Below the pieces are notes generated by a model. It was not told the DNA's origin. It saw only the letters and a program-made list of their open reading frames with translations, and ran no database searches. The position numbers and the translations under genes were made by a program. A stretch of DNA of 64,000 nt from Paecilomyces variotii (taxonomy: Eukaryota): assembly GCA_004022145.1 (NCBI GenBank), contig RCNU01000001.1, one strand, 5' to 3'. Below are positions 10,497 to 62,867 of this stretch, piece by piece (within the stretch, counting starts at the first letter, position 1; each line of letters opens with the position of its first letter).

Positions 10497-11877
10497 ACTG
10501 AGTTGAGAGATACTTCTTCGGTTTCCAAAGAATCTATAACCTGGTTGTTGTGATTAGCACGTATCGATTTAGTTCTTGATAGATATAAGCAATTGATATG
10601 ATTTCCTGGAGATGCTGCGGAGGACATCTAGCGTTCTGAAGAGCAGATTGAGTCACGGATCAATGCGCCTGGTCTCGCAATTTATCCAGGATGTACTACT
10701 TCGCTGGTAATATGCTTCTCACAGATCTACTTGGTGAAGTAGAGAGAAGTGTCGGGGTCGTATTGATAGATTCACGCTATATCCGAGAATGCGACGAGGC
10801 TCTGACAGTAGAGGATCTGGCCCAATTGTTATGAGAAGGCATGGCGCGCACTAAAGATCTCTTCATCTTCCGAATTCCGCAGAGATATGACCTGTCTATC
10901 GTGGCCAATGACTGTATATCCAGATCTTCTGTATGTTTCCGGAACTTTTGCTCTGGCCGTAGGAGGTCTGTGCCCGACAGGCAAGAGGGCGTGGACGCGG
11001 CAGCATGGCGTATGTGAGATTTATTGAAGTGACAGGAGAGGTAAAAGTCGTTCTGTGAACAGGCGCAAAGGTAATGCGACTGTAATGCACGTGGAATGCA
11101 TGCTGTATTCATTTGGATCGATGGTGGAGGCGTGGGTTGAACTCGGGGCGCATCATATCGCATCGCATCGCATCGCGTGATCGCAGAACAGGAAAAGAAC
11201 GTAACGCCCAAGAAAATGATGACTTACCCTGCTGATTATCTAGAATGAGCTCTCAATAAACCCGCACGACTTCTCAGAACTTTCTGGTGGAATCAAGTTG
11301 TATGTAGGTACTGTATGGTAGTTGCAGTAAGTATCCAGGCATGGGGAGGGCCTGGGGTAAAAATACCCCCCCTAAGTAAGTAGCACAGGCACAGAACGAC
11401 TGGATCGAACAATGGCCAGCTCCAGCCCTATTCCGCCTCTATTCGCAGCGTGTGCAAGCGAGCTGGCTGATGGCTATCGTGGCTTACCAGAGTTAGCATC
11501 ATTTAATCAGAATTAGCATGACCCGAACAAATGACTGTGACGTCGATGTCGCTGGGCTGATAAGATACTTGAACAGCGCCGCGCTCTCTGGTTGGTCCGT
11601 CCGCTTCATTACTAAAAGCACCACGGAAGGCCAAGCGATCAGATGACCGGCCTCGGCGCGCTTTTATCTTCGACAAGATACCAAGAAGCTAATGATAATA
11701 CTAACAAGAAAGAAGGACATTCATTCGTATAGACGATCACTCTACTACTATCAACAGCACATATCCACCGATCGCAGTCGTTAATCAAACATGGCCTCTG
11801 TCTCTGTTCCGCCAACCCTCCCTCCCGGTGGAGCCACCACACGATAAGGAGGAAACCAGGGCACCGTGAGCGCAGGT

Positions 11878-13375
11878 TTAGGTCTTCTGCTGCTCCTTGG
11901 CGGGACCTCCAGTCGTGGGCAGGCCCATGAAGATCTTGAACGAGTCGTAGCTGTCCGTAACCGTCAGTACTAGGCATAGGGATGTTGAGGGAAGCATAAG
12001 CATCGGGGACATACATCATCCACTGCAGGCCAGTCTGAAGAGAAAAAAGTTAGCCACTATCACAAACCACCCAACTGCAATGAATCTGCTCACCAGAGTT
12101 CCAATCATAACAATTCTGACAGGCAGTCCGTTCCACAAGCCATTGAAGCCGATTTCCTTGTAGATTCGGCCCATGGCTGCTCCGAAAGCCTCGCCCGGCA
12201 ACCGGTTCGCATTCAACTTGCTCACCATCACGTCCGCAGGATGAGACACGATGGCGCAGAGGATACCGGCCAGATAACCACCGCTGAATGCCACAGCCGT
12301 TTGCGCGCCCTTGCCGTATTCATGCTTGCTCTTCGGGAGAGTCTTGTAGATCTGCTCGACGATGGTCTCGAACGAGGCGAATTTCATCATCGTGTATGGG
12401 ATCTGTCGACCCCACAGGGGGTACAGTCCCTTGTATAGACTGCCATGTCTCAGTATATTCCAGTTCCGTACGGGGCAGCCACGCTTACCCTGCCCAGCCT
12501 TCTTTGCTAGTAATATCGGCAATTCCGCTGAAGGTTCCAGTGTAGGCTGGGGGAATGCTAGTTTGCATTCGCACCTTAACCGCCTCGAATGGACAGAGTG
12601 CAATATCCGCAATAAATTCAGCGGAAGCACTGGCGGTCAGGTACACGGAAGTCTTCCAGCGCGCGGCCCGTTCTTCTCCGACAAGGTCGCTGTAGAACTT
12701 CTTGAAGAATTCATAACCACCGTATTTGAATGCACCTTGGGCCTGCGGAAGGATATTAGCACGTTTTCTGTGATCCTACTCTTGTCGAAGGCATAAACCT
12801 ACACTGTATCCGAAGAAAGTCGGACCCCAACCGGTGAAGATCCCACGAAGACCCTCTGCGCGGTGAATCTTGCTCCAGGCTTCCACATTCCCCTTGTAGA
12901 GATTAGGGTCGACCTGACGGCGACATTTGACGAGATCCAGAGGTGTCACAGCCGTGTGCGTCAGACCCTAATTGTAGACGAATTAGCCTCAGAGTTCTCG
13001 TAAATTGAGCACAGCGCAATTCATGAGAGTTTAGAATCGACGCCTGAATATCGGAAGCTCAAGGACTGAACATGAAGCTCTTTTACTTACGCAAGCTAGC
13101 AGTCCACCAAAAGTGCATGCTGCATAGTACTTAGGCGTCCATGGCTCGATATGACCAGTTTTAGATTGAGCCAGCTTGCTCCCCTTGTTGAATTCTCGTG
13201 AAGCCTCATTTCCAATGGCCTCCGCCTTGTTCTTCACATCATCAATGGCACTCCAGGCAGGGAATGGGTTGCGCTTGATCGATGCCGGTGCTTCCGGCTG
13301 CGGCTGGGCCTTTGATCGTGTCAGAGGGTGTTGGGATGCGAAAACACCGGCAATGATTCCCTGAGAGGGCAACAT
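11878..13375 (-). CDS. PIC2: Mitochondrial phosphate carrier (Pic2/Mir1 family)
   Basis: [64 protein letters not shown]. Confidence 0.9.
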
Positions 13376-21085: not shown

Positions 21086-22441
21086 CTAGACGGTGACCTC
21101 AGTGCTCTGAGCTTGTGGCATCGTAGTGGAAGAGACATCAACTTGAGTCTCTGCCTTGGGCTTCGAATGAGCGGGAGGAGGGAACGAGCTTGTACGGATG
21201 GGACCAATCCCGCTGGAAGCAGGGGAGGCTGCTTTCGATCGCGAGGCACCGCCTGCAGCGCGTGCAGATTCGTTGTTCTCCATCGCGTTCTGGATTGCTT
21301 GGCTTCGCAGATTGTCTTCATCATTAGGGAAAGCGGACTTGTGCGAGAGGTTCAGGACTCTGTCGACCTCTCTCGCGGTAGGGAGGAGGTCGTCATATTT
21401 GAGGACAGTGCACATGTCGGTGTAGTTCTTGGCCGCCTTTGCCTCCCTGAATTCCTTGTTCTTTCCAGGGACAAGCATGTTGATCAGATACTTTGTGTTG
21501 CCGAAACGGTTTTCGACCTGCAGACAGGCATCGATATATTCGTGGACAACCTCTCTCCACGGCAGAAGACCACCCTCGGCTTCCGTACGGAAGCATGACG
21601 GGTTAGCTTCTGCTGCCGTGGCGATCATGGCACCATCGACACCGTACTCTTTCATCAAGGCAAGGGCTTGGTCGCGAGACGTTACGTCGCCGTTCATGAC
21701 ACAAGCAACACCTGCGTTCTTGCAGATAGAGGCGATCATGGGAAGTTGTTCGCGGATAGCACGCTCTCTGGGTCGCATCGGGGTTGTACGGCAGTGGACA
21801 GTCAACCCAGTGATTCCAGTCTTAACAAGCCGTGACACCAGCGCCTCCGTCTTCTCAGCTGTTTCTAGAATACGGATCTTGACCGAGATACCGATCTGGT
21901 ATGGTTTTCCAACCTCATTGACCAGCGATTCAAGGATCGAGACCAGTTTGTCAGGAGTGCGCAGCAACGCCGCTCCCATACCACCGCTCGTGCTGAATGG
22001 CTTTGGACATCCCGAATTGACATCAATTCCCGCAACATCAGCCGCGACAACCTTGGCCGCCTGCACCGCCAGTTCCGGCGAGGCAGTTCCGATCTGAAAG
22101 ATTAACTTTCCCTTCTCTCGAGAAGGATCGATGCGGTATATGATCGACTCCTGGGCCGGTTTATCTGTGCGGCCTCCATTCGACGGAATGCGGGTGAACT
22201 CGATCGTCGAATTGCGCGGGTTGATGCGTCGCACTGCACCGATCAAGGAGCGGTCGATCGTCTCAGGTCCCCAGACGAGATCTGCGCCATACTTTAGAGC
22301 CAACAACCGTGATGGCAGTTCTCCAGATCGAACCATCGGGGCTAGGACGACCTTGCCACGATAGTCCACCCCGTTGGCGGGGATGGGAACGCGGGGTGGT
22401 GTAGTGAGAGAAGCCATTGCGTTGCGGAGAAACCTTAGCAT
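21086..22441 (-). CDS. DUS2: tRNA-dihydrouridine synthase Dus2/Smm1
   Basis: VVLAPMVRSGELPSRLLALKYGADLVWGPE, DVNSGCPKPFSTSGGMGAALL, TVHCRT; second ATG at 22417. Confidence 0.92.
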   Translation of the reverse strand: MLRFLRNAMASLTTPPRVPIPANGVDYRGKVVLAPMVRSGELPSRLLALKYGADLVWGPETIDRSLIGAVRRINPRNSTIEFTRIPSNGGRTDKPAQESIIYRIDPSREKGKLIFQIGTASPELAVQAAKVVAADVAGIDVNSGCPKPFSTSGGMGAALLRTPDKLVSILESLVNEVGKPYQIGISVKIRILETAEKTEALVSRLVKTGITGLTVHCRTTPMRPRERAIREQLPMIASICKNAGVACVMNGDVTSRDQALALMKEYGVDGAMIATAAEANPSCFRTEAEGGLLPWREVVHEYIDACLQVENRFGNTKYLINMLVPGKNKEFREAKAAKNYTDMCTVLKYDDLLPTAREVDRVLNLSHKSAFPNDEDNLRSQAIQNAMENNESARAAGGASRSKAASPASSGIGPIRTSSFPPPAHSKPKAETQVDVSSTTMPQAQSTEVTV

Positions 22442-23612: not shown

Positions 23613-26293
23613 TCAGTTTCTTAGGAACAGCTCTTCTTCAGATTCCTCGCTATCTTCGATGGGTTCGTCGTCGTTCAAGCCCTCATCTCCTGTGACCTCG
23701 TCATTGTCATCCTCATCTGACCTAGTAGACGGTCCTTGGGTCGAGCCGCCGGTGTCCTCATATTTGAAAGTCCTAATTCCCACACATTTCCTGCCAACCC
23801 GACCTATGAATTCGACCGTGTTACTCTCTGGCTGGATTACCTGGCCAATGTGGACTTTCTGCACATAATGATTCTGTCGTCCAGCCCAAGAGTACCTGCT
23901 CCTGACCTTCTTTTTCTCGGGGTGAGGAATATTGGCGAAACTCAACTTCACATCTCCAAGTTTATACACGCCTGTAGCGATGTTAGCATTTCTTGTCCAT
24001 TGCTACTATAGCTCATTCAGCGTACGTGGATCGTCCACCCTAATCGGCGGGTCATCAGCCTCGCTGGCATAGATGGCTACCGTGCCCGCCTCCCCATTGA
24101 CCCCGCCAAGTTCAACGAGGGTCTTGAGCCAAACCTTCTTGTTGGCTTTGGTTGCTGCTCCCTGTTTTCTTTGTTAACATACCATTCCACAAGAGTGAGT
24201 TGACAAGTGCCGAGCAAACGTAAGAGCTGGGAAATGGAAGTAGGTACCTTGATAGCGTGCCAGTGCATCAGTTTGCCTACCCGCTTTCCAATGCCTTGAA
24301 TCTCAAATGCATCTTGCTCCCTGTGCAGTCCTTCGATGAATTTACGATGAACGCATATTCCGTAGCTCCTCCTATTACGCCGGGACGCAACACGTGGTTG
24401 CAGAATCTTCAGGGCAGCTCCCTGGCTAATCGCAGACCATGCATTTTCTGGTTTTATGACCTCTGCTCCCGGTACTAGTGTCTTGCATGCATCTCTGATC
24501 TCATTAAAAACGTAGACAGATTCAGAGAGCCCACCGCACAAGATTATTGTCTTTCAAACCAGGTCAGCAACAAGTATAGGCAGAATTGGTCATGCAAAAA
24601 AGAAATACGTTACCTTGGTTGGCACATTCTTATCCTTTGCACTAGCGGACTTATGCTGTTCATGGATCAGTGCAATAACACGGTCTATGACCTGCCGAAA
24701 CATCGAAGCGAACTCATCTCTGGACGCTGGTTAGAAATAGTTTCGTCAAACGTATTACTTCGTACACCAGGCACTACATACCTGCTTATGATCACTTCGT
24801 TGTAGGCGCGTGCATACCGTTGGCAATTTGCGTGTTTCATATGCAGGCAGACACGAAATGGCCCTTCGCTAACACCGTCGAATTGTCTCTTGAGCTTTTC
24901 AAATCCTGCCATAAATTGACTTCCAGGTCCAACCCGCATGGCAGGTGTTTTTTTAAAAGCGTCGCCAAACGACGTTTCCATCCACATATGGAAGTTGCGG
25001 TCGATAGTGGTGCCTCCACATTTCGCACCTAATACGTATCAGTAATTATTATAGGGTCCTTCCAATCTTGTATGGTCGCATACTTGTCCCGACGCAGGCC
25101 TCTTCGACTGTAAATGGCTTGGTATCGGTAATCTTGTAAGTGATAAGGTCCTTGATCGATTAATAGATGTTAGAGAACTATCAACCACATGGACTAGAGG
25201 ACCGAAAGAAAAGTGCTTACCACAGTGCCTCCACCCATGTCAACCACTATTGAATGAGTATTTTCCTGTAAAGAGCCAATTTTGTTAGTCAATATCACGG
25301 GTTTTATCACTTCGAGGCCTCCCATACCTTGAGAGGACTGTTCAAGCCGAACCTCCTCTGGTAATTATCGAATGCTGCTAAAGCAGCTGCCTCTGGTTCT
25401 GTAACAAGTGTGATTTTGTCATTTGGACGAGTGCCAAAGCCGGCTAATTTGGCTGCGATTTCGATTCTAGCCCTTTCATGATCTTTCCATCCTGCGGGCG
25501 TTGCTAGGACAAAATGTAGTCGCGTCAGTCCAAGTACCGACGCACTGCATTCCATTTTCAGCGTCTCTAAAACATGATTATAGAGACAACGTAAATAGTC
25601 CCGACAAATTTCTGAAGGTTGTTTGCCCGCAACGGTCCGCATAAGGCCTTTGCCGGCACATTGGCGTAACAACGGGTCGTCATGTTCTTCCGTGGCTGCA
25701 TCTTGGACCAAGAGCAACTTGAACCAGGTAGAAGATTTCATCTCTCCTCCAACTTGATATCCCCAGCGACAAGGCGAGTTCGGCGTTTCGTTGTCATAGG
25801 AGATAGTGGACGGAACTTTATCGTAGTTCTCGCTGAGTCCGGGCCAGTTACGCATCACTTTCACTAGACCTACGTCGTCTGTCGAGTTCACTGTGCTAAT
25901 GCCTAGACAAATATATACTGTAAGTAGAATGAGCCAAATAATTAGAATAAGATCCCTGACCTGAGAATGTTGTTCCAAAATCGACGCCGACGATCATAGA
26001 AGTCCGTTCTGTTGTGGAAGAGCTAGGAGCACTGGTGGAGGGTGAATCGCTATTTTCTGCTATAGCAAGAGAAAGAAAGAGTGTCAGTGCGGCTTCCTGC
26101 AGCTCTTCTGGAAGTTTACCTTTTATAGCCTTTTTCGCGCCCTTGCTGCGACTCTTTGCCTTTCTCTTTGCCGGGCTGCTTTCTTCGTATTCTTAGAATG
26201 TGCATGTCTGATGTGCCATTATGAGGGAAACTTACTAGGTGTATTTGGGTTGGTATCTTCCAGGTCATCAAGACCAACCTGAAGACTGGGCAT
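23613..26293 (-). CDS. Atypical Hsp70 (HSPA12-like actin-fold ATPase), about 11 exons
   Basis: IVGVDFGTTFSG, KVPSTISY, WFKLLL, TPAGW, EPEAAA, VVDMGGGTVD, CGGTTIDRNF, ILCGGLSES, WSAISQGAA; no canonical substrate-binding domain or EEVD; frame intact through all predicted splices; exon 1-2 junction uncertain. Confidence 0.88.
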
Positions 26294-27101
26294 GCTGAAT
26301 CTTCCGGGTATGATCAATTTGTAAGTATCCGCTAAATGCCCAGGTTAGAACCGAAAGCAAGATAAGGCGAAAACAGAGGACGTCGCAAGCCGCTACATGA
26401 GGTATTGGCGAATTAGTTATAGAGATGGATAACTATGAAGGGTAGCACTGGATGATCAGAAACTTTGCGCGAGATAGGAGTGATAGGACAGTGAGATACA
26501 TCAACGATGTAGAGTGAAAGGAGAGAGGAGTTGAGTGAATGATATGATATGGGGGGTAACAGAAACATAAGAACTACTTACGACGACGAGTAACCACCGA
26601 GACCACTCACTAGGACTCACGGACTGCTTTGAACCTTTGGCCTGGTGTAATCGCAGTGTGTAGATAGATCGAGGGTGGCAGAATTGAAAGTAATCAGCTA
26701 GGACTTCGGATATCCTTCAAGAATAGAAACAGTGGTTGCCTGTGGAGAGAGCTTTATTTGTGTTCCTCCAACTTCACATCAGCTCATCTGTAACTTGATG
26801 GCCTCCCACGGACCTCACTCGACCGCCTGAACTGTCGCATGTTAACTTAGGACTCGGTCTCCCCTTCTGACTTTCTTCGAAAACTGATCTACAACCCACA
26901 GGGGAAGAAGTCTGCAACAGTCTACGTCTCTACATAGTTGATACAGACAACAAACATATTACAGCATATTCCTAGAAGTCCCCATACCTTACGAAATACA
27001 TATCTCGAGGTACTCAACGTCCCAAGCCTTATCATAATACCATCGATACTGACCTTCCTCATGCATAGCCCTCGCTTTAATATAACATAATTTCCACAAA
27101 A

Positions 27102-28602
27102 ATGGCCAAAAAGAAGCATGAAGTTTCATCAGACCCTAACTTCGCGGACCCTGAGTTCATTCCTTCGAATGACGCGACAAAGAAAGCTAGAACTGCGAAA
27201 CGCAAAACTCCAGCACGGAAGAAGGGTCGTCCTAGAAAGACGACGAAAACGAAAACGAAGGAAATTCTCAGATCAGAGGGTATAAAAGCCAGGAAAGATG
27301 TGAAATCCAAGAACCAGGAAATAGAAAAGCTGGAGGATGAAGTCCGAGTATTGCGAGCCGCTTTACGGGAGAAATCAACTGACGAACATGCCATCGATGA
27401 CAAGGCAATACAGAACAAATTCGAAGATATCATCACTGGTGCTTACAGCTGGACTCGAAATTACTCATGTGATTGTCCAGTGTCTGAACAAGTAGTAGGA
27501 CATCTGAAGGAATACGCATTGCTTTCAAACCCAGAATGGCTGAATTGCCGCGAAGAAGACCTAGTTGAAATGGCTCGCCTTCCGTTCGGCTCCAATATTT
27601 TTCTGAACGCTTTGCTCATGAGATTCCTCTACGAAAGTGTTATTTTCAACCCATTTGCTGCCCCGTCTAAGAGCCTCATCCAGGGAAGAGCTATATTGGA
27701 AGATAACTACACGCCCGGGCCGCCCAAGTTCTCCATGATGCTCCAACAACTCGCAGGACAATTCAGAAATAGTGAGATATGAGATACCTGCATTAGTATC
27801 CCAGGAGGTTAACTAACACACATAAGGCGACAGTTATGGAGCAGCGAAGTGGGTTTCCCATACGCTCAAAATGATCTATCCATCACAAGCCGGGTCCTTA
27901 GATTACCAGAGAACATTGCGTTCGCAGAAGTTCTACATAGATAGCGCCCATGGATTCTTTTCCAGCTTGGGCGACTGTCTGATTCGAAAAGACATAGATG
28001 TTAGCAAATCGAAGGCAGAGTTGATTTCGCTACTCAAGAAGGCAGACGAGCTCCGCATTGACATCTGGAAGCAATCTTTTGACATCCGTCCCCATCTCCT
28101 TGGCTCAATAAAACTTGGGGAAGGCTTTCAGCCAGATTCAAATATCATGCAAGCCCATTGCTCCGTCCCGCAAGATCTAGCTCCAGGAGCGCGCTTGTGG
28201 ATGGCCGTCACCCCCGCTGTGGCTGCGTACTGGCTCAATAGCGTTGGTGAGGAACAGAGTAAGGTCTGGGCCAAAGCTGTGGTTTGGGCTGGCAATCCCA
28301 ACGAAGTGGAAATGGTCGAAGACTCGGATGAAAGGCCAGACGAGATATCAATTATAGATATCGACCAGGATAGGCTCGAGACGAAGGGGGAGTCGGCCAC
28401 AGACCCGAAGAAGAACCAGCCGACTGCTACTCTTCCTGAAGTAAAAATGGAAAGCATCGAGTCTTCTGATAGCTCTACAGTCCCCAAAATGGAAGATGGG
28501 CCAGAGCCAGTATCGAAAGGATTTATGGAGGGACTCGTCGACAAATCAGTGAAGCTGGAATCCGAAGACCCCATACAAGTAATAGTCGATCTCAAGGCAT
28601 AG
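27102..28602 (+). CDS. Uncharacterised coiled-coil protein with AT-hook-like N-terminus and GrpE-like C-terminal motif
   Basis: Two exons (intron 27772-27826); RKKGRPRK; coiled coil KNQEIEKLEDEVRVLRAALREK; GEGFQPD..MQAH..GARLWMAVTPAV..KVWAKAVVW; acidic tail. Confidence 0.75.
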
Positions 28603-29150
28603 ATCAGGGGCTATCTCGTCCGCTCATGGAGGTAAAGACCGAAAGCACCTTTTTGCATGGAAAATTGCCGCGCGGGCGACACGATGCCACTCTCTCAAAT
28701 CACTTCAACCTTCAAGCATTCCATTCCAACTTTGTTAGCAAGTCAAGACAAGCTCAGACTGCACGGGATGTTTTCTTGCAAATACCTTTCCTGCACTTAG
28801 GGACTTCCAAGATCTGGATCCTTCTTTTTCTTATCTTGCTTTTGATATTCTTATGGAAGGGCCCTTGTATCTAGACTGAAAATTGGAGGTAGAAAATATT
28901 AGCCTGCTGGGCCTTTATTACAAGAAAGCGTTAGGAAATAATAGATAAACAACTTCAGAAAAACTTCCTTAGGATACTTAAGGTCCACTTTAGATGGAAA
29001 TACAGTGTACATGGACGTAGATAGACAGGTGGCATTGCATTAGACAATTCATTACTTTTCTTGAAGCGTGCTTGAATCACAGAAAGCACACGTCGTAGTG
29101 CAAGGTAAGTATACATTGATGGATACACTATCTCAGGAGCCTGTCCATAA

Positions 29151-29541: not shown

Positions 29542-30908
29542 TTAAGCTCCACCAAGAATACCCGATATTCTCAAAGCCACGTCCAGAATTGAAAGTTGTT
29601 CATCCGAGCCGTCAACGAGCCGCTTATCCATTTCTGAAAAGACCATGACGATTTTGTTCTTCTGGATGTCGGGAATAGCATCATTGAAGACTATCCGGCG
29701 GTACAACTGGGACTAGTCAGCAAAAATCCAACAGCATCAAACGAAATATTAATATACATACCTGAGTGAGAAGCTGTGTGGCACTCCACCCGTCAGCCAC
29801 AATATCTGTGACAACAGCAGCGACTGCTTCGTATGCAGATCCCATCTTCTTGGGCTGCATGGCCTGCGTCAACCTGTCGAGGACACCCTCAGGGACGACC
29901 CCAGCGATTTCTTCCACCATTCTGACAGTAATGAGTTCCGATGATCCCGCATCTACCATCTCTGCGTCCTCATCCCCATCCTTCTTACCAGAGCCGCCGG
30001 TGTGCCCAACCAGTCTAGCAGCACTCTGCAAATACGTAATTGCTCTTCGAAGATCACCCTCACTGCATTGGAGCAACTTCTCAACAACCCCATCTTCGAG
30101 ATTGAGCTTCTCCGCGTTGGCGATTTCAGTCAATCTGTCACCTGCAGCGCCACCATCAAGCGCCTTGAACCGGAACTTGCTACATCGACTAGCGAGCGGC
30201 TCAATAATTCGCGTCACGTAGTTACATATCAGACAAAATCGCGTAATGCGACTGTACGTTTCCATTGTTCGACGGAGCGCCGATTGTGCATCTTGGGTCA
30301 TGCTGTCCGCTTCATCCAAAATGATAAGCTTAAATGGAGGGCAGGGGTATTGTTTGAGGTACTCTTCGTCGATTCCTGCGGGATGTGATAGTTGCGTTCG
30401 TGCGAAATCTTTGATCTTTTCTCGTACGATGCCGATTCCACGTTCATCCGAGGCGTTCAGCTCGAGGATACGCGTTCGATATAGGATGGGTCCGAAGAGC
30501 GATTTCGCGAGGGCAAGGATCGTAGATGTTTTACCAGTTCCGGGAGGACCGTAGAAGAGCATGTGTGGAAGCTGCAGCACTTAGTACGGCTATAAATTAT
30601 GACTTCAGATGAGGTAATAGGGTACATTTGAAGCTTGCAACGTTCTCTGAAGTATTTTTGTTGTATGATCCTGTGCCGCGACATCATCTAGAGATTTTGG
30701 CCGGCTGTTGAGGAATATCCAAGTCAGTACGCCCTAGACATCGACAAGACGAATATTCTCTTCATATGTAAGATAGAACTTACTATTTCTCAACCCAAGG
30801 CTGTAAACGCGACTGATCCTCCTTGTCTCCAGGCTTGTGCTTCGCGCTGCCCGCCGCCGCCGCCGCAGCTGCAGCCCGAGCCTTGTTATTGAAGAAATTA
30901 GATGCCAT
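29542..30908 (-). CDS. RFC2: Replication factor C subunit 2
   Basis: [58 protein letters not shown]. Confidence 0.95.
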
Positions 30909-43195: not shown

Positions 43196-43600
43196 TAGTC
43201 TTCTCTTGAGCTCTCGAATGAGATATGTTATTAGAGATCCTAGGGAATATGAAGATAAATACACACATAGCAGTGATCTCCAATATTAACTGATTCCGCA
43301 GAAGAAGCGTTAAGGACTCTTCGAACGATAACATGCCCAGTGATGAATACCTGAAGTAGTATATGCAAGAAAGTCAAGAACGAGGTATGATTATTCGTGT
43401 TATTCACAATTATGCACAAAGAGAATAGATACAAGTTTCATCATTGAGTTCTCATGGTTGCTCCAGCTCTGTGACTTTATGTCCGTAGATGGCTAGCGCG
43501 ATATCGGCTGCTTTAGCCAACTCTGCGGCGAAGCTCTCATCTTCCCTCATCTTCCCTGAAGGCTTAACGCTAGCACAATAAAAAAAAAGCCACAGAGGAC

Positions 43601-44914
43601 ATGGGATGCCCAAATCGACATCTCTCTTACGCCGCATGGCGGTTACAGGTCTTTCGTCGAATTTTCCTACCGGCGTCTGAGATCCCAAATTCGACATACA
43701 ACTTCCGGCGGAATCTCTCGAGCTCAATTCATCTCCGAAGCGACGCGCGACAGCAGAACGCGCCACCATCGCATGGAAAAAGCAATGGTGTGAACGATGA
43801 CAACCTCTTAGGACACGACCAGCAGGGTTCGCTATCTAATACTGAAAATGCCGCGCTTCGTCCATCCCAATCACTTCCTCAATCCCCGCTTCTGACGAAG
43901 CTCCGAGACCCGTCACAGAAGAAACGAAAGAGAGATCCCACGACAGAAGACGTTGATAGATTGCGGCGGAATCCGTGGGCAGTTGCTTTAGCTTCACCAC
44001 CACGATACTGTATCGCAACTGGCACTAGACTGCCGAAGGCTTTTCTGGGAGACTATGGACTTTTGCGCCCAAATGAGGAGAGCGAGAGTCTCTGGTTCAT
44101 GCCAGTTAGTCTTCTGAAGGATGAGCTGAAAGCTGTGGCCGCAAAAAACCAGACCTCTTCCGGAGGCACAGGCCCCGAAGAACAAAAAAATCCTGTTACG
44201 GCATCGAAGCTCGATCCTCTACGTATGCCGTCCGTCCGGATAGTCGATCGCTTTCATCTACTTAAGGAAGCCACGAGACAGTTCCTTGTTGATCGTCTAT
44301 CTAGAAGGAGGAAGTCTGCTGTCAGCAACATCATTCCTTTTCGATGGAGACATCCACACGGTCCACTGAACAGTCGGTCTGAGAAGAACCTGGTCTGGCG
44401 CGAGGATATGCCAGAGTTCGTGCTGGCACATATGAGAAAGGAGGCAGTGAAGGAGCTGGGAAGAGTCTGCAGACATAATTTGAATATCAACACAGCTGAT
44501 GGTGTCTGGACTGCCTTTGGCCTTTCAGATAGCTCAGAGACGGCGTTAGTTGAAGGTATGAAGCAGCTACCAGATTTTGAGAATATGGAGTGGGGAGGGG
44601 TATTAGTCTTGGGACCTGGTAATGGGGAGGAACACTCGAATAATGCTCAGCCAGCTCGAGAACCTGGCTCATTTGCGTCACCTTTCCCTGACTATATCAC
44701 TCTGCCACAGCGCGGAAAGAAGGTACCCGTTTTCGATCTGTCGGTACTCCTGAGCAAAGAGAACCTGGATGAGTTGAGGAGACTTCATCCTAGGTTCCGG
44801 GAGAGTGCACTTTTTTTCCGGCCTGGTGGAACTACTCCCGTAGAGCCAATGCTGATGTTGTGGAAACTGAAAGGATACGTTATGTACGATAACCAGCACC
44901 CGAGCCGGGACTGA
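43601..44914 (+). CDS. Hypothetical protein, possibly mitochondrial
   Basis: 437-aa intronless ORF; basic N-terminus; NPWAVALASPPRYCIATGTRLP, WREDMP, VPVFDL, LWKLKGY blocks look conserved. Confidence 0.75.
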   Translation: MGCPNRHLSYAAWRLQVFRRIFLPASEIPNSTYNFRRNLSSSIHLRSDARQQNAPPSHGKSNGVNDDNLLGHDQQGSLSNTENAALRPSQSLPQSPLLTKLRDPSQKKRKRDPTTEDVDRLRRNPWAVALASPPRYCIATGTRLPKAFLGDYGLLRPNEESESLWFMPVSLLKDELKAVAAKNQTSSGGTGPEEQKNPVTASKLDPLRMPSVRIVDRFHLLKEATRQFLVDRLSRRRKSAVSNIIPFRWRHPHGPLNSRSEKNLVWREDMPEFVLAHMRKEAVKELGRVCRHNLNINTADGVWTAFGLSDSSETALVEGMKQLPDFENMEWGGVLVLGPGNGEEHSNNAQPAREPGSFASPFPDYITLPQRGKKVPVFDLSVLLSKENLDELRRLHPRFRESALFFRPGGTTPVEPMLMLWKLKGYVMYDNQHPSRD

Positions 44915-47279: not shown

Positions 47280-48314
47280 ATGATTGCAGCCACTTCCACT
47301 GTTCTACTTGGAACCCTCGCTAGCGTTGTCACTGCGCAAACCGTCGACATTTTTCTCCCCGAATATGGAAGATATTCGGACTCTTTGGTCGCTCAGAGTG
47401 TTGGAGAGGTATGGAAGTTCAGTAACTTCCTGAAATGGGCGCATCGCGCCGCAAGTGTCTCTGCTAACCATCCGACTGAAACATTCAGAATGCCGGTGTA
47501 ACATCCTATCTCATTGAATGCGGTCCTCAAACTGTCACTTCGATATCCTGCTTCGCGCAGCCTACCGGAGTCGGTCGTGATGGCGAAACACCCCCTATCT
47601 GTACTGGCGATTCATCCTATAACACCTACACCAGAGGCTCTTGTGTCGCCGCAGGTGCGACTCTACTCGAGGGTCCCTCTACCATCGTTTTTATCAATCC
47701 TAGCGACAATGGCGTCTCGATCGACTGCTCAGTTGCGGGCACGGTGTCAGCTGTGTGGTAGGAATTCATACTTTAACCTCATCAATAACAAACTAGCTGA
47801 TCTATATCTTCTATATAGCACGCAGACCTTCAGCGACCTTGGTCATGAGAAAGTCTGGGTTGATACCATTTCCGGCGAGGACTTTTCCTTCTACCACGTT
47901 CCGCTCACTACTGGCCTGACTGCAAATGGCCCTCTTCCAACACTCAATGCTGGTGGTCAAGCAAGCACAAGCAGCGCACCGCCAGTAACTTCTTCTGCTA
48001 TCAGCCTTTCTCCGAAAATTACCGCATCAATGGCCGCTCCTAGCACGACGCCCAGCACGACGTCCAGTACCACGCCCAGTACTACGCCCAGCGCAAGCAC
48101 CACGTCAAGCAATGCTGCAGTTGCAAGTAGCAGCTCATTCAGTCCGCTCAACAATACGACCTCGAATGCGACCAAACCGGCAACCAATGGTTCTTCCAAC
48201 ACAACTACCGTCACACCTATTGCTACCGAGGCCATCAGCGGAGCAACAGCCCTAACCCTGTGGGTGACGGGGGCTGCTGCCGCAGCCGTGGTCGCTGCTG
48301 CGGTTATAATCTGA
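47280..48314 (+). CDS. Secreted Ser/Thr-rich, probably GPI-anchored cell-wall protein
   Basis: Signal peptide MIAATSTVLLGTLASVVTAQ, Cys-containing domain, STTP repeats, hydrophobic C-terminus; two introns. Confidence 0.8.
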
Positions 48315-51508: not shown

Positions 51509-53633
51509 TCAGGCCTTGACACGCTCGTTAAATATCACCTGCAGCGGAGATAACGTCAAAGTAAACGTATCTTTAGCTCCTTGATCGAATTTCACGCCAT
51601 CCTCCCCCGGAGCGAGGCTAAGGTCAAAATTTAATGCGACAGAGACAATAGCAAAGCGGAGAGTCATATATGCGAGGGGTTTTCCAGGACATCCATATTG
51701 TCCTGTTTAAATATCAAGATCATTAGTCACTAAAAGAAAGAAATGTATTTAGGAAGTCAGAGGAAAGGAGGCTGACAACTTACCGATTTGGAAAGGAAAG
51801 TAAGCTTCTTCGTGTAAAATCATTTCTCCTTTATTTTCAGCTAGCCATCTCTCAGGCATAAATTTGTCCCCGTCTACGAAATTCCTATTGTCTCGCTGAA
51901 GAATATACTGGGGGACAATAACATGAACGTCGCCTGGAATCCAAACGTCGTCTATTAAAAGACCATCAGGAGGTGTCACCCGCGGTTGGCCACTAGGCAC
52001 AGCCGGTTTGAGTCGAAGAGTTTCGTTGATGATGGCATCTACATAAGGAATGTTACGCACTTGTTCATAAGTGAACGAGTCGCTAGCATTGGGAAATAGG
52101 TTATCGAGCTGTCGTTGGAGTCTTTTGCAGACAGACGGATTGACTGTAAGGTAATAAAGGACGTTCGCCAGTGTTGCGCCAGTTGTATCGCTTAAATTGA
52201 TTTTAGTATAATAGTCTCCCTTGACTCAAATGACACAGGGTGTCCTACCTTCCTGCAACGATGATGACACGGCCATCTTCTTGCAAAGCCTGTTCACCGG
52301 GAGGTGCAGATGGATCATTATCTTTGAAGGCCTTAAGCAACCAAGATATAATGTCGGCAGGATCCTGCGAATCTGTCTTTTCCCATATCTAGAAAGTCGT
52401 CATCAGGGCTGTAGATTGATGGCACTAAAACGCGAAAGGATCGGAAACGAAGTCGAACAAAGGAAAAGAACATACAGCTGCCTTTTCCTTAACATGGTTG
52501 TGACAATAATCCATGAACGACTCATAGCTCCCAGTCAAGCCAGGAATTGAGCTCAACAGGCACAGGAACCATGGCACATGAGCCAATAACCCTAGCGTCG
52601 CCATTTGCTCATGTAGTCCTTTAATAGCACTATGCTCTTTAGCTTCTTGCAGCTGCTGGAAGTCTTTACCGAGTCCAACCACGCCCATGACATCGAAAGT
52701 GAGGAACATAGTCCATTCGGTGATATCAACTGGCTGACCAGCCCGTGTACGTAACTGGGAAATGAACAAGTCGACTTTGGACTTTACTCGAGGGGCATAC
52801 ATTGCCATCGCTGTGATTGTTAGAAGTCAATAAAAGGAAAAAGCAAAAAGCAGAATACTGATGTATCCAACGAGAGAAAGTGATTGGCAGTTAAATTATT
52901 AGTCATAAGATACCTTTGACGCTGAATCCGCGATCCCAAGCTCGACGCCGGCGGCGATGGATCTCAGGATCGCGCATTGTGTGAACTGAGTTCTTGGTCG
53001 CATCATCTGAGACATGGCTGTACAAAGTAGACTTATGGCAGGGTGACTTGGGACCATGGATTGCCTGAGCGGCTGATGGACGATTTATAGAAATTTCACG
53101 CGGACCTAATCAATGCCAGTCAGCCAATTATTATCCCTCTGGGACAGAAAAAAAAAATAATAATAATAATAAAATTGAGACCTATACTCCCAGAGCTTAC
53201 CTGTACGGATAAAGTCACCGTGCTGTTTGTGCAACTTTTCCAGCTGAAGGTGATATTGCAGACCCTTGGATGCAAGATTCACCGCGTAGAAACGGCTGAG
53301 TTTGGCGCCCCAGGGGCCTGGAAAGTTTCGTAATCGGTGAAAGAACAGTCTATAAACTCCGATACTGGTCGCCAGCGCAAGATTAAAACACAAGCCTGCA
53401 TACGAAGCTGTTGCAACACTATGTAGCAAGCTTAGATCGAATAAATTCACATAAATTCCCACAAGAGAAGCCCATGTAAACAAATAAGCGACGAACAAGG
53501 TCCCGAGTCGATTGTCGATCTCGATATTCCTGATGCTTGAATGGAATGCTATTCCTGACAACCCAAAGGTCATAGCCACCTGCATGGCATTTGGTGACAA
53601 GATGTTTAGGGCCATATCGACTGGAGTTTTCAT
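51509..53633 (-). CDS. Cytochrome P450 monooxygenase (multi-exon)
   Basis: FFHRLRNFPGP, I-helix AGSDTT, ETLRLKPAVP, FMPERW, heme motif FQIGQYGCPG. Confidence 0.93.
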
Positions 53634-54286
53634 CTTGGAACGAATACTTTTGCGCGTTGCTAGTCTGAAATTTTCCCCGGGTATATTGTAGGAATTATCA
53701 ATAGAGTAAAAGCCAAGAGAAACTGAATAATGCACAATTTCCTACTGGAAGCGTTTATATAGGGAATTTTTGCCAACACCCCTGTACACCACCCCGCTTC
53801 CTGTCACACCCCACATCGACGCTTACTGGTTGCATCACAAGGTTAAATACTTGACCTTCAGGAAAAATTGGTGTCTTTCTTGTTAGATTAGTTAATTTAC
53901 CCGTGAGTTATCCGGAATTTTAATCAGTTTGTTGTTGCAATATCTTCCCACCCAAACTTGAATTCAGACGCCTTAATAGTGGCCGGAGTTGCTGCACCAA
54001 TGATTTTGTAAGGATAGAGCTGACTCTTTAGCAAGCCTAAGAACATTACAGTCAGACTTTAGGACGAGACACCCTGGTCTACCTTACACCGTGTATACCG
54101 ACAGCTGTACAGATCACACAGGATGGAGGCTGCATCTTGATATCTGACATCTAGCCAGCTATATGTCGAGCAGGAGAAGGTGCTAATGACTATTACGGTT
54201 TCGTGTAATCCATAAAATGTTATATTTAGTATTATGTACCTGCTAGGGCAGGAGACTCTTATTCCTTATAAAAAGAGGTAGACTAT

Positions 54287-61778: not shown

Positions 61779-62867
61779 ATGGTGAGTGCTCCAATGGTAT
61801 CCCAAATTCATTCAATTATATTCCAGTTGCCGATTGCACTTCAGCTTTGATTGCTTAGATTGAGAGGTTCCAAAAAAGAAAAAAAAAATTGGGCAATTGG
61901 TCTCGCCATTTGAAGCCTTTTAAAATCTGAGACCCAGGCTAGAAACTTTGCTAACAATGCAATGTCTTCCTAGGCAAGCGTAAAGCTTTTCCCTAGTCCT
62001 CTCCTTCTGCGGACGTTCTCGTATCAGCATTCGAGAACGTCACTGCATTCGTTTTCTCGCTTTCCCTCTGCGCCATTCTCGCGATGTTTCTCCAACACCT
62101 CACGACGGGCTGCAACGTCCATCCCTTCGGCCCCAAAGCCTGCCACACGCCCTAATATTGCAGCGTCTACAGAAGAAACTCTGAAATTTGCTGGAAGACG
62201 ACCGGCTGGGTTCGGAAAGCTGGAGAGAAAGGTCGCAAAAGAGGGTCAAGTTGTACTCTACAAGGCGCCGTCGCAACGGACATATATTCTGGGAGCGTAT
62301 GGAATGGCGGCTTTCTGCTTCGCTTATGCTGTGTATAACTCGAATATCACGTTTCGAGATCCCAAGGTTCCATTGCCCGTATGGCAGAAGTCGCTCTTTG
62401 GTGGTGTATGCATTATCATGAGCATCATGGGAACGGTCTTCCTTTTCAAGACGAACCGACTGGTCAAGACGATCACCGCCGTTAACTCAAACGGAAAGAC
62501 TATGGTTCGGTTTACCGTCCGCAACTTCATCCCTTTCCGGAAACCCGTCGAGTTCGACGCAGTGCCTCGCCAGATTGTGTTTTCACGTCGAGTGGTGGTC
62601 AGTCCTGAGTCCATTGGCCCCGATGCGGCGGACAGATCAGCACGGAATGAGGCTGTCTCGAAAGTGAGCTTCTTCAGAGCTCCATTCAAGAAGATCAGCT
62701 TCGTCCTCTGGAGGGCATTTTGCTCTGTACGACGGCTTTTCACGCAGGAGGGGTTCGTTCTTATTGAAGTAGAGGGCCGAAAAGGTGACTTGAGAATGGA
62801 TCTAGAGGGCTTTATCTCTAATGACCTGTTCCTGGTGGGAAATCCTGTCCATGTGAAGTTTTCATAA
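61779..62867 (+). CDS. Probable mitochondrial inner-membrane protein with two TM helices (TMEM223-like)
   Basis: ATG|GTGAGT intron 61782-61973 joins in frame to an Arg/Ser-rich presequence and the 62304 ORF; VLYKAPS motif then two TMs; alternative start at 61719. Confidence 0.7.

Follow-up and report, generated by a model that had tools for sequence, protein, structure and literature searches.

What is encoded by a gene pair in which an atypical Hsp70-fold ATPase gene stands head to head with a gene of an uncharacterised family? The question is raised by a locus of the mould Paecilomyces variotii that lies in a 64,000-nucleotide stretch of contig RCNU01000001.1 (assembly GCA_004022145.1), here called the window. 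An HSPA12-like gene (26293-23613, minus strand) and a partner gene (27102-28602, plus strand) were found there as the original prediction had described them, head to head and with 808 bp from ATG to ATG; in public collections, the proteins nearest to theirs come from P. variotii. Animals widely possess HSPA12-type Hsp70s, with a huge expansion in bivalves, and many copies are annotated in fungi. In a 2026 review, the function of HspA12 is given as unknown (PMC13580251), and a 2013 survey of ascomycete Hsp70s deals only with the seven yeast-type subfamilies (PMC3879978). The literature searched contained neither a partner or cofactor for HSPA12-type proteins nor a treatment of these proteins in ascomycetes, and nothing relevant on P. 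variotii in connection with Hsp70 or on Mieap in connection with GrpE. What is new here is a candidate cofactor, from an uncharacterised family, that is linked in the genome to an Hsp70-fold ATPase. The explanation proposed is that the two divergently transcribed genes form a module conserved in filamentous ascomycetes, in which the partner would be a dedicated cofactor of one ATPase clade, and it is given about an even chance of being correct.

The principal evidence is the recurrence of the pair. A two-gene module had been predicted from the window, and Hsp70-like genes paired with partner homologues were indeed seen in other genomes, as adjacent locus tags in three genera and at metagenome loci. 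Consecutive tags for partner and ATPase occur in P. variotii DTO195F2 (3144/3145), Penicilliopsis zonata (ASPZODRAFT_14712/14713) and Arachnomyces sp. PD_36 (FQN54_003503/003502), and the linked genes of Penicilliopsis and Arachnomyces are the best matches outside Paecilomyces in both the partner and the ATPase searches. In P. lecythidis, the partner and ATPase homologues each lie on a contig of the same length, which is only suggestive. Scanning metagenome contigs with a 12-sequence partner sub-alignment returned seven partner loci (L114-L120). All three with at least 4 kb of upstream sequence (L115, L116 and L117) have an Hsp70-like gene, detected by tblastn, on the opposite strand 0.8-1.1 kb upstream of the partner start; L115 and L116 look like one sequence, which leaves two independent metagenome cases. 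The remaining loci (L114, L118, L119 and L120) have less than 1.7 kb upstream and are uninformative on linkage.

The surroundings of the pair change from one case to the next. The window pair is flanked by DUS and RFC genes, the L117 pair by UCH, Alg9-like GT22, AIG1-like and ADH genes, and the L116 pair by a pyridoxamine-phosphate-oxidase-like gene. Since the flanks differ among the three, the pair persists as a unit and not as a piece of a larger syntenic block. In a 54-row tree of fungal Hsp70-like proteins, the seven linked ATPases all fall within one 16-row clade with a Shimodaira-Hasegawa-like approximate likelihood ratio test (SH-aLRT) value of 99, and equally tight clustering arose in none of 500 label shuffles. 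That a clade-specific, head-to-head pairing has been conserved while its flanks changed argues for functional coupling of the ATPase and the partner, which is considered probable. Direct binding of the partner to the ATPase as a cofactor would go a step further, and its chances are judged to be even at best.

Several observations weigh against the cofactor explanation. The linkage in Penicilliopsis and Arachnomyces consists of tag adjacency only, with orientation not read, and the ATPase tree is a quick maximum-likelihood tree for which the careful search is unfinished. In Emergomyces africanus, the two homologues carry distant locus tags (ACJ72_06375 and ACJ72_05262) and lie on small separate contigs. 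Among the 50 ATPase matches listed, no Hsp70-like neighbour appeared for the partner homologues of Blastomyces, Histoplasma, Trichophyton, Uncinocarpus, Aspergillus udagawae and others. Talaromyces has the ATPase, yet no Talaromyces partner was present among the names looked up. As far as seen, then, linkage is not universal. The partner also outpaces the ATPase, as its core is 54% identical to that of P. lecythidis and 29% identical to that of Penicilliopsis, in comparison to 78% and 53%, respectively, for the nucleotide-binding domain (NBD) of the ATPase. Faster evolution of this kind is atypical of tight obligate complexes but frequent among adaptors. Finally, the partner intron was seen spliced in none of the runs examined.

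The region between the two start codons (26294-27101, 808 bp) holds the divergent promoters together with an exon and an intron of the ATPase 5' untranslated region (5'UTR). This intron (26332-26581, minus strand, 250 nt, GT..AG) is defined by a joint from 26331 to 26582 in one contig of run X3, at a depth of 3.8. It places the ATPase transcription start at or beyond about 26619, less than about 480 bp from the partner start codon, and so cuts the promoter region to less than about 480 bp. Such compactness, together with head-to-head starts 0.8-1.1 kb apart in the window, L116 and L117, would also suit two functionally related genes that share a bidirectional promoter and whose proteins serve different steps of one process without touching. 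Conserved divergent gene pairs in fungi are often co-regulated. The data in hand do not separate shared regulation from a cofactor relationship, but a linkage confined to one ATPase clade is at least as well explained by a specific partnership, and co-regulation without contact is regarded as unlikely.

Both genes are transcribed: run X3 contains spliced ATPase contigs and partner contigs (27123-27335 and 28258-28802) together. Contig depths cannot rank expression, and differences in depth were left unused. No heat-shock element (TTCnnGAAnnTTC, at most one mismatch) was found within 26294-27101, and the window as a whole contains 23 such sites against 20.7 expected. Near-identical locus sequence is also present in food-fermentation metatranscriptome libraries (runs X1, X2 and X4). 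The contigs of these three runs cross introns and also extend over intergenic DNA, and thus derive from DNA or pre-mRNA; they therefore indicate the presence of the organism and not expression of the genes.

The first member of the pair is a gene of 10 coding exons on the minus strand (26293-26236, 26182-25961, 25902-25328, 25265-25221, 25150-25084, 25028-24782, 24719-24614, 24550-24248, 24161-24026 and 23971-23613), with the ATG at 26293-26291 and the stop at 23613, encoding a protein of 705 amino acids. The exons were derived from GT..AG sites, reading frames and RNA. Spliced contigs from run X3 skip all nine coding introns at GT..AG borders; eight of these introns match exactly the model built from splice sites and reading frames, while intron 1 (26183-26235, 53 nt) was set from the run itself. 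The encoded protein shares 99.3% identity with P0006, an annotated P. variotii protein in which the Pfam HSP70 family scores 47.2 bits (cut-off 20.6) over profile positions 116-371 of 599. A profile of 52 sequences of the ATPase family matches the whole DnaK NBD (1dkg_D residues 4-379, E = 4e-27). The corresponding domain of the window protein, placed by the Pfam HSP70 match, the DnaK profile match and the motif positions, comprises residues 84-487 (24410-25991, minus strand). The motifs VGVDFGTTFSG, TEPEAAALAA, VVDMGGGTVD and LCGGLSES are intact in it, and the phosphate-1, phosphate-2 and adenosine motif columns are near-invariant among the 52 relatives. Judged from its sequence, the ATPase is a real Hsp70-fold enzyme with a complete NBD.

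Beyond the NBD, the family profile and conservation in relatives delimit a non-canonical C-terminal domain (residues ~488-662; 23745-24409, minus strand) followed by an acidic tail. This C-terminal region is 86-100% conserved among close relatives. Neither a substrate-binding domain nor a lid was matched in it, and when the profile is compared with full-length DnaK and Hsc70 chains, the best-matching stretches end at about profile position 410 of 582. At the other end of the protein, a Lys/Arg-rich N-terminal stretch (KRKAKSRSKGAKKAIKGK; 26115-26168, minus strand) looks like a nuclear-localisation signal, and basic N-terminal extensions of 55-88 amino acids are also found on the ATPase relatives of Penicilliopsis, Arachnomyces and Talaromyces. 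Database names of the relatives include "Hsp70 family chaperone", "actin-like ATPase domain-containing protein" and "heat shock 70 kDa 12B". The term HSPA12-like is used here as a label for this architecture and these names, and not for orthology, as the comparison contained no animal sequences. Several relatives also carry the precomputed labels PF27032 or PF27033, neither of which matched in the Pfam scan of the ATPase; these families may represent non-canonical parts of fungal HSPA12-like proteins. In exon 7, metatranscriptome contigs from X1 and X2, but not contigs from X3, show a G>A difference at 24618 (plus strand), probably a strain polymorphism.

The partner gene (27102-28602, plus strand) encodes 481 amino acids in two exons (27102-27771 and 27827-28602) separated by an intron at 27772-27826 (GTGAGA...CTAAC...AG), and the sequence across the exon junction (...QFRNSDSYGAAKW...) is identical in three annotated P. 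variotii proteins, P0001-P0003. Pfam scans of the window pieces and of P0001 assigned it to no family. A word-based search retrieved only Paecilomyces relatives, at 94, 90, 78, 62 and 52% identity over exon 2. HMMER with an alignment of the Paecilomyces partners retrieved 63 cluster representatives at E ≤ 1e-3, 25 of which reach E ≤ 1e-10, over profile positions ~27-390. Among the 30 representatives whose names were looked up, most belong to the Eurotiomycetes (Penicilliopsis, Arachnomyces, Rasamsonia, Blastomyces, Emergomyces, Histoplasma, Ophidiomyces, Uncinocarpus, Trichophyton, Aspergillus udagawae and Elaphomyces), and a few come from other classes (Clohesyomyces, Elasticomyces, Trichoglossum and Cirrosporium). 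The named homologues are all "hypothetical", save for some Blastomyces members that bear an automatic label in UniProt, "BZIP transcription factor".

An AlphaFold model of the partner from a 5-sequence alignment was unusable, with a predicted local distance difference test (pLDDT) score of 36.6, and was replaced by one from a 59-sequence alignment, which has a mean pLDDT of 75.8 and 232 residues at 90 or above. In this model, a basic disordered N-terminus (pLDDT below 50) precedes a long single helix or coiled coil at residues ~54-94 (27261-27383, plus strand), modelled as a helix over residues 53-92 with pLDDT 95-97. A helical bundle of the conserved core follows at residues ~100-304 (27399-28068 on the plus strand, intron included), its helices mostly exceeding a pLDDT of 90, and then a six-strand beta subdomain at residues 309-379 (28081-28293, plus strand; strands 309-313, 331-333, 346-352, 354-360, 366-372 and 374-379). 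An acidic disordered tail ends the protein. In the family alignment, the beta subdomain carries the signature F..S..ME.H ... LDG..I..V.PAI.A ... KVWAKAVVW, and the C-terminal motifs singled out by the original prediction were located at 28117-28158, 28186-28221 and 28261-28287.

The best structural matches of the model are all coiled coils, aligned on residues 49-94, and sub-threshold coiled-coil Pfam matches occur throughout the family. A Foldseek comparison of the model with the PDB, a check proposed together with the GrpE assignment discussed below, returned nothing at E ≤ 1e-3, and the family profile searched against PDB sequences found only ribosomal S25E, at E = 3.5. On the strength of the alignment and the model, the partner is a real, conserved and uncharacterised family with a confidently predicted fold that has no solved relative.

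The basic N-terminus raises the question of whether the partner acts on DNA. It contains an AT-hook-like core, KKGRPRK (27219-27239, plus strand), and an RGRP or KGRP core of this kind is present in the partners of Paecilomyces and Penicilliopsis. Combined with the leucine-zipper-like coiled coil, the core could indicate a DNA-binding regulator that controls the adjoining ATPase gene, and the basic N-termini throughout the family, the label given to the Blastomyces members and sub-threshold matches to bZIP_1 (PF00170) in four of 59 members all point in that direction. However, the best bZIP_1 match reaches only 18.3 bits against a cut-off of 27.6 and covers profile positions 26-59, the zipper half alone. 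The DNA-contact region of bZIP proteins is marked by the basic-region signature N-x7-R, and no such signature stands beside the coil in the 15 N-termini read by eye. Only five of 31 full-length members have the AT-hook-like core, and the linked homologues in L116 and L117 lack it; moreover, conservation in the partner lies in its globular core of 290 residues and not in the basic region. A role as regulator of the ATPase gene is considered improbable.

A second possibility follows from the neighbouring ATPase. The original prediction had likened the C-terminus of the partner to the GrpE beta domain, and on this view the partner would be a highly diverged GrpE-type nucleotide-exchange factor whose long helix and beta subdomain grip the NBD of the ATPase as GrpE grips DnaK. 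The adjacency to an Hsp70-fold ATPase gene is in keeping with this, as is the coarse parallel in architecture: a long helix, further helices and a small six-strand beta domain. The profiles also align collinearly and score slightly higher than reversed controls, at 15.4 against 9.9-10.4 for the beta domains and 22.2 against 11.7-12.1 for the core. For these comparisons, GrpE was represented by 31 sequences, the E. coli gene and 30 other Pseudomonadota genes that are 31-63% identical to it. In the same comparisons, however, hhalign gave a probability of only 1.9%, over 15 columns, for the 59-sequence partner family, and of 2.7% for the beta subdomains alone; P is ~0.02 over the 14-15 confident columns of these alignments. 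Furthermore, the confident columns set the GrpE residues RPAMV opposite PAIvA, and not opposite KVWAKAVVW, the segment that had originally been matched.

Searches at the level of families and structures point the same way. No GrpE match at E ≤ 10 was found by Pfam in the window pieces, in P0001 or among the 25 commonest families of the 59 members, and the PDB profile search returned no GrpE chain at E ≤ 10. In the structural ranking of 48,161 chains, GrpEL1 (9bls_B) comes 24th, and 147 of its 161 residues align within model residues 54-386; the helix by itself gives as good a match, and the result is not above noise. In addition, the helical part of GrpE is about 50 residues per chain, against about 200 in the partner. 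The partner thus resembles GrpE coarsely in architecture and faintly in collinear motifs, with no evidence of membership in the GrpE family. Common descent with GrpE is held to be improbable, and a GrpE-type grip on the ATPase by a diverged family member slightly more so than a role in DNA binding.

Other named families came closest by protein-language-model features, in which the nearest clusters to the partner are MIEAP (PF16026) at 0.77 and GIL1_IRKI_C (PF24994) at 0.78-0.81, although shuffled proteins often score as high. Both MIEAP and the plant GIL1/IRKI proteins combine an N-terminal coiled coil with a C-terminal globular domain. Neither family gave a Pfam match at E ≤ 10 in five C-terminal pieces, and neither is listed for the 59 members; both resemblances are weak leads only. 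It is doubtful, though somewhat less so than the DNA-binding and GrpE alternatives, that the partner family represents a new structural type of regulator that is dedicated to HSPA12-type ATPases, serves in nucleotide exchange or targeting, and is perhaps distantly related to the C-terminal domains of MIEAP and GIL1/IRKI.

The genomic setting bears on a further proposal, that the pair is an accessory conflict locus of the allorecognition, defence or toxin-antidote kind. The pair sits inside a core housekeeping region of the Paecilomyces genome. On one side lies a dihydrouridine synthase gene (main open reading frame 21086-22441, minus strand; Pfam Dus, E = 4.2e-47) and on the other a replication factor C small-subunit gene (largest exon open reading frame 29717-30562, minus strand; Pfam AAA, E = 2.4e-15; RCF1-5-like lid, E = 1.6e-9; Rep_fac_C, E = 4.4e-3). 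The families named for these flanks in the original prediction are thereby supported by Pfam, and the gene names DUS2 and RFC2 rest at the family level. In the wider window, Pfam identifies an amino-acid permease, a mitochondrial carrier, an SNF2 helicase, Sec20, a pyrophosphatase, an M18 aminopeptidase and CDC20. Four long open reading frames of 211-446 amino acids (43574-44914, 47502-48314, 53106-53741 and 61974-62867) have no Pfam match at E ≤ 1e-5. On the metagenome contig L117, the open reading frame directly downstream of the partner homologue (11306-12238, plus strand) has a weak, below-cut-off match to AIG1-type GTPases (E = 2e-4) and is without a counterpart in the window.

In favour of a conflict locus, the layout is one of two genes for proteins of unassigned function, and the partner does diverge faster than the ATPase between P. 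variotii strains (92.3% against 98.7% identity for DTO195F2), with only 72-73% identity in the partner N-terminus. Among proteins labelled P. variotii, this basic N-terminus (27102-27281, residues 1-60) is only 67-73% identical where the core is 88-98% identical. The linked ATPase shows 98.7-99.3% identity in the two P. variotii proteins to which it was compared, and some strains labelled P. variotii may be separate species. Against a conflict role, the divergence is concentrated in the disordered ends of the partner, with 96-98% identity in the core, and the locus is embedded among core genes (permease, SNF2, DUS, RFC, Sec20, pyrophosphatase and CDC20) with no transposon or repeat signal noted. 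No HET, NLR or toxin domains were found in the Pfam scans of window pieces and proteins, and PADLOC returned no meaningful match, only noise. The pair is also shared across orders inside a single ATPase clade, a pattern that vertical descent would give. With core-gene neighbours, inheritance within a single clade and no match to a defence family, the accessory interpretation was not borne out and is considered highly improbable.

The cofactor explanation can be set out as a tentative mechanism. The first gene supplies a clade-specific HSPA12-like ATPase in which a non-canonical C-terminal domain replaces the usual substrate-binding domain behind a full Hsp70 NBD. The second supplies a protein whose basic disordered N-terminus leads into a helix some 40 residues long, which probably dimerises as a coiled coil. 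Roughly 200 residues of helical bundle come next, and roughly 70 residues make up the six-strand beta subdomain, with KVWAKAVVW at its end. The globular core of the partner may dock on the ATPase, and may either tune its nucleotide cycle or bring it to a target. In Eurotiales, the lysine-rich N-terminal extensions on both proteins make a nuclear site probable for the two of them. The lysine-rich extension of the ATPase and the AT-hook-like core of the partner suggest a nuclear or chromatin setting, with the reservation that this core is not family-wide.

A partner that stays head to head with one ATPase clade amid changing neighbours is a concrete and testable candidate cofactor. Should the partner family indeed be the new type of regulator considered above, with its distant kinship to MIEAP and GIL1/IRKI, atypical Hsp70s of the HSPA12 kind would own a cofactor class of ancient origin, and work on the fungal pair would offer a first experimental handle on HSPA12-like function. 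As P. variotii is a cultivable mould, the question is open to direct experiment.

Among known systems, MIEAP and GIL1/IRKI resemble the partner in their general layout of an N-terminal coiled coil and a C-terminal globular domain. The bZIP factors share with it a basic N-terminus followed by a heptad-like helix, and lend their name to some members by automatic labelling. Unlike bZIP factors, however, the partner family shows only sub-threshold matches to the zipper half, lacks a canonical basic region and is defined by a large globular core. For the ATPase, the closest parallel is metazoan HSPA12A/B, in which a full Hsp70 NBD is likewise followed by a non-canonical C-terminus and after which relatives are named "heat shock 70 kDa 12B". 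This likeness is one of architecture and names, and the fungal clade differs in its lysine-rich N-terminal extension and its linked partner gene. For the pair as a whole, the comparison is with DnaK-GrpE and mortalin-GrpEL1. The differences are that the partner has no sequence or profile relationship to GrpE and contains a helical bundle of about 200 residues that GrpE does not have, that the ATPase has no recognisable substrate-binding domain, and that the two are divergent eukaryotic genes and not an operon. The likeness is that in both cases an Hsp70-fold ATPase gene is found beside that of a smaller protein with a long N-terminal helix and a small C-terminal beta domain. In bacteria, Hsp70 and its nucleotide-exchange factor are often encoded side by side, and here, too, the adjacency has been kept across lineages.

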